Part shown: positions 5,583 through 64,000 of the stretch, piece by piece
Numbering within the stretch: the first letter of the stretch is position 1
Layout of the letters: the number at the start of each line of letters is the position of its first letter
Assembly (NCBI GenBank): GCA_963836075.1
Contig: CAWIIB010000009.1
Span: forward strand, 128,001 to 192,000
DNA from: an uncultured Acidobacteriota bacterium
GTDB taxonomy: Bacteria; Acidobacteriota; JAQAZP01
DNA: 64,000 nt
Direction of reading: 5' to 3'
Notes under the pieces: generated by a model
Told to the model about the DNA's origin: nothing
The model's database searches: none
What the model saw: the letters and a program-made list of their open reading frames with translations, nothing else
Program-made: the position numbers and the translations under genes

Positions 5583-6521
5583 CTAATCCCTCACATCGAA
5601 CAGTTGCACGCTGAACATGGAGCGATCGTCGGTCCAGATTTCCGTACGTTCAAAACCAGCGCGGCCGGCCAGCCCGGCAAACTCGTCGGGAGTGTACTTG
5701 TGGGAGTTCTCGGTGTGGATGGTCTCCCCTTCGGCGAAGTGAATCTCGACGCCACCGATGGTGAAGGAGAGGTCCCGGGTGCAGCGCAGGTGCATCTCGA
5801 TCCGGCCCTCGCTCTCGTTATAGAAGGCGAGGTGCTCGAAGGCCCCCAGGTCCAGGTCGGCGCCCAGCTCGTTTTTCATCCGTTGCAGCAGGTTGAGGTT
5901 GAACTCGGCAGTGACCCCGGCACTGTCGTTGTATGCCCGTTCCAGAACCGCCCTGTCCTTCTTCAGGTCCACACCGATGAGCAGCCCGCCGCCGGCACCA
6001 CAGATGGCGGCGATACGGTGCAGCAGATCAACGCTCTCCTGGTGAGTGAAATTTCCGATGGTCGACCCGGGGAAGTAGACCAGTTGCCGCCGGGCCGGCC
6101 GCGGTGGGTCGGGCAGGATGAAGTCGCCAAAAAAATCGGCGTGGACCGGCTGCACCGGTATCTGCGGATAGAGCCGGTGGAGCTCGGCTGCCGTCTGCTG
6201 CAGCATCTCGCCGGAGATGTCCACCGGCACATAGGAGACAGGGAGGTCCAGATACTTGAGCAGCATTCTGGTCTTCAAACCGCTGCCGCTGCCCAGTTCG
6301 ATAACCCGGGCATTGGGCCCGATCAGCCCCGCCATCTCCGGGCAGCGGAGCTGCATGATCCGCAGTTCGGTCCTGGTGGGGTAGTACTCCGGCAGCTCGC
6401 AGATCTCCTCGAAGAGCTCCGCGCCCCGCCGGTCATAGAAGTATTTTGGTGAAATCCTCTTCGGCTGGGAGCGGAGCCCCGCGATGGCGTCTTCGAGAAA
6501 TGTGGCAGGTTCCTGATTCAT
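5583..6521 (-). CDS. egtD: L-histidine N-alpha-methyltransferase
   Basis: PKYFYD..GAELFEEICELPEYYPTRTE, ELGSGSGLKT, FPGSTIGN, AYNDSAGVTAEFNLN, IHTENSHKY; adjacent to egtB. Confidence 0.95.
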   Translation of the reverse strand: MNQEPATFLEDAIAGLRSQPKRISPKYFYDRRGAELFEEICELPEYYPTRTELRIMQLRCPEMAGLIGPNARVIELGSGSGLKTRMLLKYLDLPVSYVPVDISGEMLQQTAAELHRLYPQIPVQPVHADFFGDFILPDPPRPARRQLVYFPGSTIGNFTHQESVDLLHRIAAICGAGGGLLIGVDLKKDRAVLERAYNDSAGVTAEFNLNLLQRMKNELGADLDLGAFEHLAFYNESEGRIEMHLRCTRDLSFTIGGVEIHFAEGETIHTENSHKYTPDEFAGLAGRAGFERTEIWTDDRSMFSVQLFDVRD

Positions 6522-58831: not shown

Positions 58832-61800
58832 ATGAAACGATTGATGCTCATCGCCGCCGTGCTCGTGCTGGTTTTGAGCCCGATCGACGCAGCGGCAGAC
58901 TTCACAACCTGTTATCCGTTGGCGGCCAGCTACAACACCGGGTCGACGGATGGAAGCAGTAAAACCCGAACCAGTGAGATCGCCGGCTACGATTCCGAGG
59001 ACGGCTGGGCGATGTTCGACACCTCGGCCATCCCGGACACGGACAGCATCGTGTATGTCGAGTTCCACTTTTACGTCAACAGCACCGACTGGCCCTGGTG
59101 GAGTCGTCACACCGCTGACCAGCGACCCGCTCACCGCCTCGGCCGCGGCGACTCTATGCCGACATCAATGCCGAAGCCCTGTCAGCGGCTACTACCACCG
59201 CCAGGAAGAGGACATTACGTTTACCACCGGGTGGAAGACACTGGTACTGGGCGGCACGGCCAACCGACTGACATGGCCGCAGACCTTGGTGACGACTGGT
59301 TCGCTCTGGGCGTGGCCAGCACGGACGACAACACTACCTTCTACATCATCGTCGACGGCTGGGCCGAAACGAACCCGCCCTACCTGGTGGTGGAGCACAT
59401 AGCCGATTCCTGCAGCAACCACCTGATTGACCTGGGGTCCATGGGCTGCGGCGACGTGCTCTCCCACACCGGTGACACCACCGGAGCCACGAACTTCTGT
59501 GGCCAACCTTCAGGCGACAATTTCCTTGAGTTCGAAGTGCTGGAGGACGGACTCTACACCCTTGACATGTGTTTCTACGAAGGGACGCTCTTCGACACCG
59601 TGCTGTGGCTCTATGACGACGAGTGCTGCGGGAACGTGATCGCGGTCAATGATGATTCCGACTACGGCTGCGGCTTGAAGTCCCGGATCGACATCGTCCT
59701 CTCGCCGGGCACCTACTACGCCCAGGTGGAGGGCTATGATGTCGACGAGGGCCTCTACCGGCTGGACATCACCTGCGACCAGCCGGTGGATCTCGGTCCG
59801 GTGCCCTGCTTCGAGGAGATCGTCTACAACCAGGACACCAGCGGGGCCATCAACTACTGCGGTCATCCATCGGGTGACGCGCACTTCAAGTTCACCGTCG
59901 ATTACACCGCCAACTACACGGTCAGCCTCTGCAATCACCTACACGTCCTACAACTCGTTCCTCCGGCTCTTTGACGATTACAGCTGCGGAAACCAGATCG
60001 CGGCCAACAACGACTACCCCGGCTGCGGCCTCAACCCCTTTATCGACGTGACCCTTGACCCCGGGCGACTACTACGCTCTGGTGGAAGGCTACCAGGATA
60101 GTGAAGGGCCGTTCGAGCTGCACATCAGCTGCAACGAGCCGGACGGCGACACCCAGCTGGAGCTGGTGCCGGACATGGAGTGCTACCAGGAGGACGACAC
60201 GGTCTACCTGGCCATCACCCTCTCCAACGGCAACGCCATGATCGTCGGCGGGCAGTTCTTCCTCGGCTACGACAATACGGCCCTCGACTTTACTGGTGTC
60301 ACCGTGGGCGACGCTCCCTTCACCAACGAGGTCTACAACGTGGTGGACGAGGGGGCCGGGACCATCGACTACGCGGTGGGTGTCCCCGAGGGCACCAGCG
60401 GTACCATCAACGACACGGTGATGGCCTACCTGACCTTCACCGCGCTGCGCGACATCTGCGCCGACGCCCGGCCTGGTCTACTTCCGCACCCACTCACCTC
60501 CCACCCGGCTCAGCGACAACTACGGCAACGCGGAATACACCGTGCTGCTGGACATGGACATCGACGACACCACACCGCCGGTGATCAGCTGCCCGGCGCC
60601 GCTGACCCTGGAGTGCGACCAGCCCACCGATCCCCCGGGCACCGGGATGGCCACCGCCACCGACAACTGCGACCCCGCCCCGGTGGTCTCCTGGAGCGAC
60701 AGTTTCGACCTCAGCGGCTGCGGCGGCACAACCGGCACCATCACCCGCACCTGGCAGGCCATGGACCACTGCGGCAACATCTCCACCTGCGACCAGGTCA
60801 TCACCCTGGTGGACACCACCGCCCCGGTGGTCACCGCCGGCGCCATCGACAGCTGTTACGGCTCGCAGATGGCGGCCGAGTCGGCAGCAGTGGCCGCCAC
60901 CACCGCGGCGGACAACTGCACCCCGTCCGGCAGCCTGCTCTACACGCCGGTCACTGCGGGTGACTGCGCAGCGACGATCACCGTCAGCGTGAGCGACCTG
61001 TGCGGCAACTCCGACTCCGTCACCTACAACACCCGCATCGACGGCCTGGCGCCGCTGGTCACCGTCGGGGGCGATATGGACGTCAACGCCGATGCCGGCA
61101 CTTGCGCTGCCGCGGTCACCTGGGCCGCCGCTTCGGCCACCGACAACTGCGACGGCAATCTCTCCGGCGTGGTCGTCTACCACATCGACCTGGGCAACGA
61201 CGGTTCAGTGGACGATGTCCAGGCCGGCCTCACTTACACCTTCCCGGTGGGCACCCACAAGGTCACCGCCACGGCCACCGACAGCTGCCTCAACACCGGC
61301 CAGGACGACTTCCTGGTCACGGTGAACGGCTACAACTCCATGGTCCTCACCCTCTCCCACGACGGTACTCTGGTCAGTCCGCTGACCCGCTGTATCACCT
61401 TCGAGCTGTGGGACTGTGCCGGACCCACCAGCGTGACCTACAAGACCGAGGTCACCTTTACCGGCGGCATCGCATCCGCCACCATCGACGTGCCCTGCGG
61501 TGACTACAGCTGTATCACCGCCCGGGACGAGCTGCACACCCTGCGGCGGACACTGGACGGGCTCTCCGTGGTGGGCACCGAGTATGTGGCGACATTCACC
61601 CTGCCGCTGCTGGGCGGCAACCTCAATGGAGATACCTATGTCGACATCCTCGATTTCGGTGTCTTCAGCTATCAATTCGGGCCGGGAGGCGGCCCCACCA
61701 CCTGCGCCGACACCGGTCCCCATGCCGACATCACCGGTAACGGGGTCGTCGGTTCCGACGACTTCTCCTTCATCCAGATCAACTTCCTCAAGGGCGACGA

Positions 61801-62020
61801 TGCCGACTGCTGCAGCAGCCCGAGCCCCATGGGCCCGGCCGACCGGCCGGTCCTCTCGATCTCGGTCGAAGAGCTGCGACGGCGCGGTCTGGGACACCTG
61901 GCCATCGGCGACCTCAACGGTGACGCCGTGCTCGACCAGGCGGACATGGCCGCCTTCATGAGCGGGGCCCGCCCCAGCCTGAAGCCACAGACAAAGGAGG
62001 GCGCATCACTGCAGGAATGA
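58832..62020 (+). CDS. Second large secreted modular protein (PPC-like beta domains, cohesin-like, HYR-like repeats, dockerin-like C-terminus) with several frameshifts
   Basis: Signal MKRLMLIAAVLVLVLSPIDAAA; repeated FDTVLWLYD..NDD..CGL...LSPGTYY; cohesin-like IVGGQFFLGYDNTALDF; ATDNCD repeats; C-terminus paralogous to the 54275 protein. Confidence 0.75.
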
Positions 62021-62045
62021 GACCCACCTCCGAATAACTGTATTG

Positions 62046-62083
62046 GCCTCGCCCCGCGTCCTGCGGGGCGGGGCATTTTTTTT
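62046..62083 (+). terminator. Rho-independent terminator
   Basis: GCCTCGCCCCGC-GTCCT-GCGGGGCGGGGC followed by A and T8. Confidence 0.85.
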
Positions 62084-62122
62084 GGAAAGTGAGCGGCGAT
62101 AGAGGGTTGGCGGAGCAGGCGC

Positions 62123-63274
62123 TCAGGCGTGCCGGCGGCGAAGCTCCGCGGCGGCGGCGGAAATGCTGCGCAGCTTTTCGGTCGCCGTCTCCTCGTCGTT
62201 GACACAGCGGTTGGCAAAGCAGCCGAAGCCGCAGTCGGGATTGAGGAAGATCTGCTGCGGCGTAAAGAAGCGCAGGGCCTGCTCGACCCGGGCCACGATC
62301 TCGTCCACGCTCTCCGGTTCGGCGGTGCGCGGGTTGACCACGCCGAGGCCGATCTCCTTGTGCGAGAGGGCCCGGCCCACCACGCCGATGTCGCCGGCCC
62401 GCGGGGTGGCGTATTCGAGGACAAACTGGTCCACGTTCATCCGCTCGAAAGCGGGGAGCAGCCTGGTGTAGTCGCCGGTGAGCAGCACGTCCTCCCGGCG
62501 GCTCCAGTTGCCGCGGCAGACGTGCAGGCCGGTGCGCAGGCCGTCAACCCCGTCAACGACACGGTTGATCAACTCGGCGGCGTATTCGAGCTCAGCACCC
62601 GCATCACGGCGGGTGGCCAGAGTCGCTCACATGAAGGTGCGGCGTCCGCACTCCTCCGACATGACGATCTCGGTGAGCACCGGTTCGTCGAACTGGACAA
62701 AGGCTGCTCCCTGGTCGCGAAGTTCCAGCAGCTCCTCGCGGAGGATGCGCACCACGTCATCACCCATTTCGGTCTTGCTGGCATACCCCTCGCCGGAGAA
62801 GGCGCCGACCCACATCGAGCGGGTGAGCAGGTACGGACCGGGCAGGGTAACCTTTACCGGAAGATCGGTCAGCCGGCGGACGAACCGCAGCTCATCCACG
62901 GCCAGCGGCTCCCGCCGGGAGAGGCGTCCCACGCAGGTCGGATTGCTGATGGCCGAGGCCGGCACGTCGAGGGTATCCAGGATCTCCTCGAAACCGGACT
63001 TGTCCTCCACCGTGTCCAGCATCTCGGCCAGGGACATCAGCTTTGTCCCGGCGACCTTGTCGGCGATGAAGGAATAGAAGTTGTCCCGCCGGTGCTCTCC
63101 GTCCACCACCAGCTCCACGCCTGCCTCTTCCTGGAGGCGGATGGTGCGGGTGATTTCAGTGTCGGCGATGCGCTCGAACTCGTCGCGCCCGATCCGACCG
63201 TGCCGCCGGTCGCGCAGGGCGCGGAGCAGGGCTTTCGACCGGGGCCAGCTGCCCACCTGGGTTACCGTGAACAT
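62123..63274 (-). CDS. Cobalamin-independent methionine synthase II (MetE C-terminal core) family protein with in-frame UGA (predicted Sec216)
   Basis: VGSWPR, DGEHRR, KVTLPGP, VQFDEP, LHVCRGN, LEYATP, NPDCGF. ORFs 62627..63274 and 62123..62572 share a frame and are joined by ATG-TGA-GCG-ACT-CTG (TGA at 62627-62629). Confidence 0.85.
62596..62615 (-). promoter_or_regulatory. Candidate bacterial SECIS element of the MetE-like gene
   Basis: mRNA CACCCGC-CGUGAU-GCGGGUG, a perfect 7-bp stem starting 11 nt after the UGA. Confidence 0.65.
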
Positions 63275-63307
63275 GTTGTTCTTGGTCCATACTGCTTTGT
63301 GTCCTGT

Positions 63308-64000
63308 CTAAACAATCGCCAGTTTCAGCTGCAGCTCCACGCGCTTTCGCCAGGGTGGAAGCCAGCGGCGAACGGGTCACCGTCCGCTCCCAGGCCCGGC
63401 GCACTTCAGCCTCGTCGTCGAGGGTGGAGGCAAAGCACTTCAGCTCGATCGAGCTGAACGACGGGTCGCCATCGTCGAGGCCGAGGTGAGCCAGCACGTT
63501 GTTCAGCTTCCCGCGGACCGAAATCTCCACGTCATCCACGTTCAGTGACTCCCTGGCGCATTCATTGGCAAAACCGGTGCAGAGGTCACCGGCCAGCGCG
63601 CCAAGGAGGTATTCCACTGCCGAGGGATGCTCGTCCCGCTCTTCGAAACTGGCCGGCTGGCCCACTTGATACGAGAAGTTCCGGCAGTAGACCGTGCTCT
63701 TCAGCCGCCCGGTGGCCCGGACCCGGGCCCGCCACTCATACTCCCGGGCGCGGGCCTTGTCCCCGGCCAGGGCCTGCTCCTCCTCCTTCACCTTCTCCGC
63801 CCCGCGGCGGATAAAGAAGCGGTCGCACCCCTCTCCGGCCAGCTGACCCAGGTAGTCGTGGCCCACCATACGGCACCAGGGGGGCAGCTCGTCACGCACC
63901 GTCACTTCGCGGCTGCGCATCTCAAGCACGCCGCCCACCGGCACCTGGAGCATGTTTTCACGGATCAGCAGGATCAGCCCGGAGCCGCAGTCGAGGTCGC
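63308..64000 (-). CDS. TusA/SirA-like domain fused to an OsmC-like domain; 5' end outside the window, frameshift near 63342
   Basis: DLDCGSGLILLIRENM...LEMRS..TVRDELPPWCRMVGH (TusA-like); PSAVEYLLGALAGDL...VEISVRG...RSPLASTL (OsmC-like). Removing one base gives ...KAVELQLKLAIV* ending at TAG 63308-63310. Confidence 0.8.

Follow-up and report, generated by a model that had tools for sequence, protein, structure and literature searches.

Does the UGA that interrupts a methionine synthase-like gene of an uncultured Acidobacteriota bacterium end translation, or is it read as selenocysteine (Sec)? The question arises from a 64,000-nt stretch of DNA (assembly GCA_963836075.1, contig CAWIIB010000009.1, positions 128,001 to 192,000), hereafter the window, whose numbering is used below unless a contig position is given (C9 for the contig holding the window). 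On its minus strand, positions 63274..62123 form 383 codons with a single internal TGA at codon 216 (TGA read as U), and standard open reading frame (ORF) calling splits this frame into 63274..62627 (215 aa) and 62572..62123 (149 aa). A first-pass annotation, made from the letters alone, had joined the two fragments into one candidate selenoprotein related to the cobalamin-independent methionine synthase MetE, and translation with TGA as U confirms that they share a frame and yield a 383-residue protein. Its start, MFTVTQVG, is common to 65 of the 120 closest database fragments. Based on comparative sequence evidence, we propose that the gene very probably encodes a single-domain Meth_synt_2 selenoprotein, in which UGA-216 is translated as Sec with the help of a selenocysteine insertion sequence (SECIS) located in the coding region, the Sec replacing a Cys that does not vary in the motif of the subfamily. 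Five independent lines of evidence lead to this reading: the Sec/Cys pair among homologs, the truncated database entries, the other genomes with the same codon, the selection acting on the hairpin and the Sec machinery of the host.

The reading of codon 216

The set of full-length homologs, comprising the 120 best matches (58-70% identity, 356-414 aa), has a Cys at the column of residue 216 in 119 cases and a gap in one, within the motif RTFMC that the first-pass annotation had given for homologs. None of these 120 best matches is more than 70% identical to the MetE-like selenoprotein. When the N-terminal 215 residues are used as query, the best 120 matches are 75-93% identical and 215-221 aa long (100 of them exactly 215), and all terminate at TFM (119) or TFL (1). 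The identical endpoints show that gene callers have truncated one and the same gene at its UGA in all of these closest database relatives. We also compared 71 related loci from species-representative genomes, in which codon 216 is TGA in 57, TGC or TGT in 12, broken in one (L078) and missing in one that is without the loop carrying it (L081, a distant homolog with 25% identity). The codon comparisons below set 58 Sec forms beside 12 Cys forms. The frame following the UGA is conserved at the protein level, both in the segment ATLATRRDAG and at all four zinc-ligand positions. At L078 (6001-7171, in a metagenome-assembled genome labelled Eisenbacteria) the frame is lost exactly at the Sec codon, ...RTFM being followed by SDLGYPPG; a short deletion of the TGA region would explain the break, which may be either an assembly or polishing artefact or a real pseudogene.

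Metagenome runs from soil, salt marsh and marine sediment (X1, X2 and X5) contain near-identical pieces of the locus. Contigs from three independent metagenome studies span codon 216 with 1, 2 and 6 differences overall, and no difference falls at 62627-62629 among the 40 of 203 differences listed. In the metatranscriptome run X20, two contigs cover 62925-63400 only, which is short of the UGA, and they may derive from DNA carry-over.

On the 3' side of the TGA, 11 nt (62626-62616) precede a stem made of CACCCGC (62615-62609) and GCGGGTG (62602-62596), which encloses the loop CGTGAT (62608-62603). This perfect 7-bp hairpin had been pointed out in the first-pass annotation with the same loop (CGUGAU) and the same spacing, and it was recovered in both the minimum free energy (MFE) and the centroid folds. 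A spacing of about 11 nt and an early G in a small apical loop are features of the minimal SECIS of E. coli and of the bSECIS model of Zhang and Gladyshev. In the Sec forms the codons that make up the stem hardly vary: Thr+5 is ACC in 55/58, Gly+10 is GGT in 52/58, and Arg+6 and Ala+9 are CGC and GCG, respectively, in 58/58. When the 26 columns with four- to six-fold degenerate codons in a stretch of 50 codons are ranked by synonymous entropy, these four codons and the loop codon +7 take the five lowest places, and the loop reads C-G-K-G-A-Y in all 58 sequences. The 12 Cys forms use four codons for Arg+6 and have Pro at position +9 in eight cases. Of the seven stem positions, 5-7 can pair in Sec forms versus 2-5 in Cys forms, with a mean hairpin MFE of -12.5 versus -7.5 kcal/mol. 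Across the alignment, 92.1% of the cells are paired, and sliding the 3' arm lowers this share to 49% or less. This pattern indicates that the hairpin is under selection in the Sec forms only.

Some caveats apply to the hairpin. Taken alone, the window hairpin is no better than chance (z = -0.78, with 43 of 200 shuffles folding equally well or better), so that its significance comes from the comparison with other genomes and not from the single, GC-rich sequence. Covariation is weak, four of the 7 stem pairs being invariant. The outermost pair, the only one represented by four pair types, fails to form in 25 of the 56 distinct sequences, which leaves a conserved stem core of 6 bp. A scan of 62450-62750 against Rfam (E<=10) returned two chance-level matches and no SECIS family; since Rfam covers few bacterial SECIS types, this outcome does not count against a SECIS.

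The host genome encodes SelA, a SelB with a C-terminal wing domain and a tRNA-Sec with anticodon tca, as well as two SelD genes, each containing one in-frame TGA with a hairpin 14 nt after it. SelA was also detected in 8 of the 8 other Sec-form genomes tested. The follow-ups suggested with the first-pass annotation, namely a search for Cys at this column in homologs (119 of 120), for selABCD, for UGA and hairpin in other genomes (found together at 57 of the 71 loci) and a check of positions 62627-62629 (unchanged in the bridging contigs of three metagenome runs, among the differences listed), all gave results in agreement with its proposal. The two SelD loci, C4:17381-18301 and C9:892330-893256, lie outside the window and have near-identical flanking peptides and hairpins. 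One of them is on a 50-kb contig; with the contamination of the genome estimated at 4.6%, this copy may be either a paralog or a contribution of another organism.

Other ways of accounting for the UGA fare poorly when set against these data. If it ended translation, the locus would produce a 215-aa protein and a separately started C-terminal piece, or would be a pseudogene; gene callers do predict such a split, and a TTG start is available at 62572. However, the 18 codons between the UGA and this TTG are conserved in frame (ATLATRRDAG...) in 58/58 Sec forms, the first in-frame start codons downstream vary among loci, half a TIM barrel is no folding unit, and the identical break recurs in 57 genomes whose relatives have a Cys. 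We therefore regard termination as highly improbable. Plain read-through of the UGA without selenium, inserting one of the standard amino acids (Trp, Cys or Gly) through near-cognate decoding or reassignment, would account for the conserved downstream frame, but the gene uses TGA as its own stop, the Sec machinery is complete, with SelA in 9/9 of the Sec-form genomes examined (host included), the hairpin is conserved at SECIS spacing, and homologs have at this column a Cys, the residue that usually stands in for Sec; this option retains a very slim probability. A single base change, from TGC or TGT to TGA, would be enough for an assembly or sequencing error in the host genome to mimic a Sec codon, yet a TGA occupies the same codon in 57 other genomes and the contigs of three studies bridge it with no change there among the 40 of 203 differences listed, which makes an error a negligible prospect. 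For practical purposes, frame conservation and the bridging contigs rule out the pseudogene, the split gene and the sequencing error.

Table 1. Features of the MetE-like locus (window positions, minus strand) and the basis of each assignment.
Feature	Position	Strand	Basis
MetE-like gene, very probable selenoprotein, core Meth_synt_2, 383 residues	62123..63274	-	one frame joined; PF01717; AlphaFold2 model; Foldseek
Own stop codon of the MetE-like gene, TGA	62125-62123	-	frame translation
In-frame TGA, codon 216, very probably read as Sec	62627..62629	-	Cys in homologs; TGA in other loci
SECIS-type hairpin, stem CACCCGC/GCGGGUG, loop CGUGAU	62596..62615	-	fold and comparison of 58 Sec forms
HxC zinc-ligand motif, codons H251-V252-C253	62516..62524	-	H251 and C253 invariant in 76 sequences
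Codon E287 (LEYATP), expected third zinc ligand	62414..62416	-	invariant in aligned homologs
Codon C348 (NPDCGF), expected fourth zinc ligand	62231..62233	-	invariant in aligned homologs
TusA-like + OsmC-like fusion, upstream, same operon	63156..64000, past the window end to C9:192064	-	OsmC and TusA Pfam matches

Family, loop and distribution of the enzyme

The gene product is a single-domain 'core' MetE-like protein, belonging to the superfamily of the cobalamin-independent methionine synthase catalytic domain. Residues 3-351 match the Pfam family PF01717 (Meth_synt_2) with 106.8 bits, against a cut-off of 21. Neither the N-terminal folate-binding domain of MetE (Meth_synt_1, PF08267; 16.9 bits, cut-off 27) nor the model TIGR01371 of classical MetE (EC 2.1.1.14; 91.4 bits, cut-off 929.95) reaches its threshold. 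All 10 matching methionine-synthase families of NCBIfam likewise stay under their cut-offs (best 179.9 versus 406 bits), the equivalogs compared including PRK04326, PRK06233, PRK00957, PRK09121 and PRK01207. As the first-pass annotation had observed for the motifs HxC, E and C (NPDCGF), the zinc site is intact: H251, C253, E287 and C348, which we take to be zinc ligands from their role in MetE, are present and invariant among 76 aligned homologs. The motifs GSWPR, DGE and FDEP and the residue W155, typical of substrate binding in MetE, are retained, presumably with the same roles. An AlphaFold2 (AF2) model built from 76 sequences reached a mean predicted local distance difference test (pLDDT) score of 89.1 and a predicted template modelling (pTM) score of 0.90, with an average pLDDT of 55 for residues 211-220. 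Foldseek gave T. maritima MetE 1t7l as the best match of the model, through its C-terminal barrel (TM score 0.75, E = 2.7e-22, 22% identity).

Residue 216 belongs to the motif (R/K)TFM-C/U, in a loop of about 15 residues between the strand with FDEP and the strand with HxC. Homologs with identities as low as about 50% still have the loop, whereas those at 32% and 27% are without it, so that the (R/K)TFM-C loop defines a subfamily of the core MetE-like proteins. Alignments to solved MetE structures are interrupted within the Sec loop or shortly ahead of it and restart only near residue 270, and the low confidence of the AF2 model here points to a loop that may be mobile or flexible. Apart from the two zinc ligands and residue 216, no Cys is invariant among the aligned homologs, which makes it more likely that residue 216 would find any redox or relay partner on another protein.

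The Sec forms carry about ten phylum labels altogether, namely Planctomycetota, Verrucomicrobiota, Chloroflexota, Acidobacteriota, Armatimonadota, Gemmatimonadota, Thermodesulfobacteriota, Eisenbacteria, Krumholzibacteriota and Latescibacterota. We computed a quick tree by maximum likelihood from 78 rows (L077, of 242 aa, was dropped, and L063, L078 and L081 were outside the input table). It groups 56 Sec and 9 Cys rows in a clade with 99% support in the Shimodaira-Hasegawa-like approximate likelihood ratio test (SH-aLRT), and the 13 rows of the outgroup are all Cys. The 9 Cys rows inside the clade fall in a subclade dominated by Verrucomicrobiota. Parsimony counts 4 changes between Sec and Cys, at least two of them forced by well-supported branches, and the simplest reading of the tree would be one change from Cys to Sec, followed by a few reversions to Cys. 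The intermixing of phyla in the tree points to horizontal transfer. The distribution of the gene is sparse and scattered. No match at E<=1e-60 was obtained in the two genomes of the same genus, and a search of 41 relatives gave a match in 2, the host genome included. In a phylum sample around the genome G041, which contains one identical locus and appears to represent the phylum of the host, matches were found in 4 of 150 genomes: the Sec-form centre genome itself, two Cys forms (51-54% identity) and one homolog at 36%. A second phylum sample, around G042, gave 1 match in 201, the centre genome itself.

Gene neighbourhood and possible chemistry

In the host genome the MetE-like gene closes a minus-strand operon that starts with a small TusA-like gene (C9:192669-192472), followed by a DsrE-like gene (192440-192078), both beyond the end of the window, and a gene for a TusA+OsmC fusion (192064-191156). 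Of the Sec-form loci with at least 1500 nt upstream (n=50), the fusion is adjacent in 45 and a DsrE-like gene is present in 44, while ACAD-like and SBP-like genes occur in 5 each; these neighbour counts, and those given below for Cys forms, come from related loci and hence are not independent. The TusA-type Cys is retained in the TusA domains of the operon, and the OsmC-like domain presumably lacks both peroxidase cysteines of OsmC. Operons of the Cys type have the order OsmC-like (153 aa), ACAD-like flavoprotein, cytoplasmic SBP-like, MetE-like (e.g. L052, L061, L072, L079). The nearest families of the ACAD-like and SBP-like proteins are NF049984 ('Rv1679 family') and NF049985 ('Rv1680 family'), both below their cut-offs; literature searches on Rv1679, Rv1680 and fadE16 yielded nothing helpful on function and no paper on the Rv1679/Rv1680 pair. 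Both neighbour sets are present at four Sec loci (L059, L060, L066 and L070). On this gene order, the OsmC-like domain is the constant partner of the enzyme, the sulfur-carrier proteins being an addition of the Sec clade. The predicted complex of the Cys-form MetE-like protein of L061 with its OsmC-like neighbour scored 0.28, against a mark of 0.32, which speaks neither for nor against a contact.

Some details of the neighbourhood are recorded here as observed. The TusA+OsmC-like ORF overlaps the start of the MetE-like gene by 119 nt (window 63156-63274, minus strand), and it has about 50 additional C-terminal residues compared with homologs that end just ahead of the MetE-like start; at L013, for comparison, the last position of the fusion is 5990, and that locus has its MetE-like start at 6001. 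The overlap could be genuine or could reflect a lost stop codon or a frame error. At seven loci (L020, L024, L026, L029, L031, L035 and L047; six labelled Planctomycetota, one unclassified) an extra protein of about 200 aa is encoded directly downstream of the MetE-like gene, and that of L035 has a Cys-rich N-terminal part and a C-terminal TusA domain (PF01206).

The MetE-like gene is the sole Meth_synt_2 member in the host genome, which also has a MetH-like frame of 1161 aa; this frame, together with the absence of the MetE-like gene from congeners, argues against a housekeeping methionine synthase. No match to MesX (PF08908, DUF1852) was found in the host genome (94.7% complete), and none in 14 control genomes either. 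The neighbours of the Sec forms suggest thiol chemistry linked to a sulfur relay and not classical methionine synthesis. The gene context thus fits the view, already put forward in the first-pass annotation, that the reaction differs from classical methionine synthesis, and it gives no particular support to the methyl-carrier role that had been considered there for the Sec.

As a working proposal, held tentatively and with less than even confidence, the protein may be a zinc-dependent thiol alkyl or sulfur transferase, whose Sec or Cys would exchange with the sulfur carriers encoded upstream, and not a housekeeping methionine synthase. The zinc site would hold a homocysteine-like thiol; GSWPR, DGE and FDEP are kept. 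The Sec or Cys of the mobile loop would act as a second reactive chalcogen, swinging over the zinc-bound substrate thiol, and its partners, in an exchange of sulfane sulfur or in a short-lived selenenyl-sulfide, would be the DsrE-like and TusA-domain carriers. A bolder version, which we consider unlikely, would make the Sec or Cys a covalent carrier, either loaded by the relay or attacking carbon as a selenolate, and the operon a cobalamin- and folate-free route of C-S formation or exchange; homocysteine, methionine or methanethiol, made from relay sulfur at the MetE-type zinc site, would be the candidate products of this improbable route. A role of the Sec as methyl carrier has little support. 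On chemical grounds a Se-methyl selenoether should donate its methyl group poorly, and none of the neighbouring genes encodes a methyl-donor protein, which casts doubt on such a role.

The proposal of an exchange with sulfur carriers has to face several facts that count against it. The Cys-form loci (n=11) have no TusA and no DsrE, and carry ACAD-like and SBP-like genes in 9 cases each, so the link with a sulfur relay may concern the Sec clade only or may be mere shared ancestry. The OsmC-like partners have no conserved Cys. Near the Sec there is no conserved resolving Cys, the Cys at position -7 being found in 22/58 Sec forms only. In addition, SelA was detected in 5 of 6 Cys-form genomes; the Cys forms are therefore not simply the outcome of a loss of the Sec trait.

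The main rival, held with slightly less confidence than the exchange proposal, gives residue 216 a different role in a true selenoprotein: it could be a reversible fifth ligand or lid of the zinc site, or a redox switch turning the enzyme off in oxidising conditions, in an enzyme that would still be a methionine synthase, independent of folate and using another methyl donor. The retention of the MetE substrate-binding motifs GSWPR, DGE and FDEP and of W155 is in line with this alternative, as are the lack of a conserved partner Cys beside the Sec and the flexibility that the AF2 model predicts for the loop. Furthermore, core MetE families are reported to rely on separate partner proteins (Price et al. 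2021, PMC7857596). Against it, the host already has a MetH-like gene, the MetE-like gene is sporadic even within the genus, and its neighbours are of the sulfur-carrier type and not corrinoid or methyl-donor proteins.

Beyond the 3' end of the MetE-like gene, a GC-rich hairpin (CCCCGC...GCGGGG, window 62040-62085), with an A-run on the minus strand that is a T-run on the plus strand, sits between this gene and the convergent plus-strand ORF 60542-62020. It looks like the terminator of the plus-strand gene and could be used in both directions. The plus strand between 60055 and 62020 contains long ORFs for Cys-rich and repeat-rich, secreted-looking proteins, whose C-terminal stretch GDLNGDAVLDQADMAAF presumably resembles a dockerin or EF-hand motif.

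Relation to known selenoproteins, methionine synthases and sulfur relays

To our reading of the comparative data, this is very probably a real and widespread selenoprotein family, of which we found no earlier description. The first-pass annotation, to which no MetE-family enzyme was known as a characterised selenoprotein, is in line with Table 1 of a review of prokaryotic selenoproteomes from May 2026, whose 119 families and subfamilies include no MetE-like or Meth_synt_2 entry (PMC13188914). The alkyl-transfer selenoproteins in that review are arsenite methyltransferase and methylated-DNA-protein-cysteine methyltransferase (PMC13188914). Full-text literature searches returned no MetE-like selenoprotein. 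None appeared in term searches of the main texts of a 2022 review, BSepDB 2026, deep-Sep 2025, the GOS survey and a 2016 comparative survey (PMC9312934, PMC13326102, PMC12013277, PMC2398784, PMC5029168), whose supplementary tables could list one.

As a selenoprotein the case is conventional, with a Cys homolog, a SECIS in the coding region and SelABCD, and the novelty lies in the host enzyme family, by which the MetE-type zinc alkyltransferase superfamily would be added to the selenoprotein catalogues. The enzyme is systematically mis-annotated across at least ten phylum labels, the best 120 database entries all being fragments of 215-221 aa. Since Sec almost always marks a reactive site, its position points, within a core MetE-like subfamily that is uncharacterised, to a functional residue and a loop that had so far been overlooked. 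The Sec, together with conserved neighbours of the DsrE/TusA/OsmC or of the ACAD/SBP type, gives a testable handle on the chemistry. If the covalent-carrier version were true, improbable as we hold it, it would provide the first selenoenzyme among zinc-dependent thiol alkyltransferases and the first case of a sulfur relay directly coupled to this superfamily.

Established bacterial selenoproteins, such as the SelD of the host, share with the MetE-like protein an in-frame UGA where homologs have Cys, a hairpin that begins 11-14 nt further on and the dependence on SelA, SelB, SelD and tRNA-Sec; the MetE-like protein differs from them in having no UxxC or CxxU redox motif and in the enzyme family that hosts the Sec. 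Classical two-domain MetE (T. maritima 1t7l/1xdj, S. mutans 3l7r) has the same barrel, and its motifs GSxPR, GE, DEP, HxC, E and C align with ours, but at about 750 aa it is twice as long as the MetE-like selenoprotein. The S. mutans enzyme, the only MetE aligned as far as the Sec site, has no Cys there.

The core, folate-independent methionine synthases MesA-MesD (Price, Deutschbauer and Arkin 2021, PMC7857596) are reported also to consist of a single Meth_synt_2 barrel of less than 400 aa without a folate-binding domain, to keep the zinc-ligand motifs and to depend on separately encoded partners. The word selenocysteine is absent from the text of that paper. The protein of the window has in addition the (R/K)TFM-C/U loop, and its neighbours are DsrE/TusA/OsmC-like or ACAD-like and SBP-like, in contrast to the corrinoid proteins or MesX of the Mes families, a distinction drawn from their published description. 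Finally, we found no published description of a combination of TusA, DsrE, OsmC and methionine synthase. The operon resembles the TusA/DsrE sulfur relay in encoding a DsrE-family protein and TusA-family domains, and differs from it in that a TusA domain is fused to an OsmC-like domain and the operon ends in a MetE-like enzyme.

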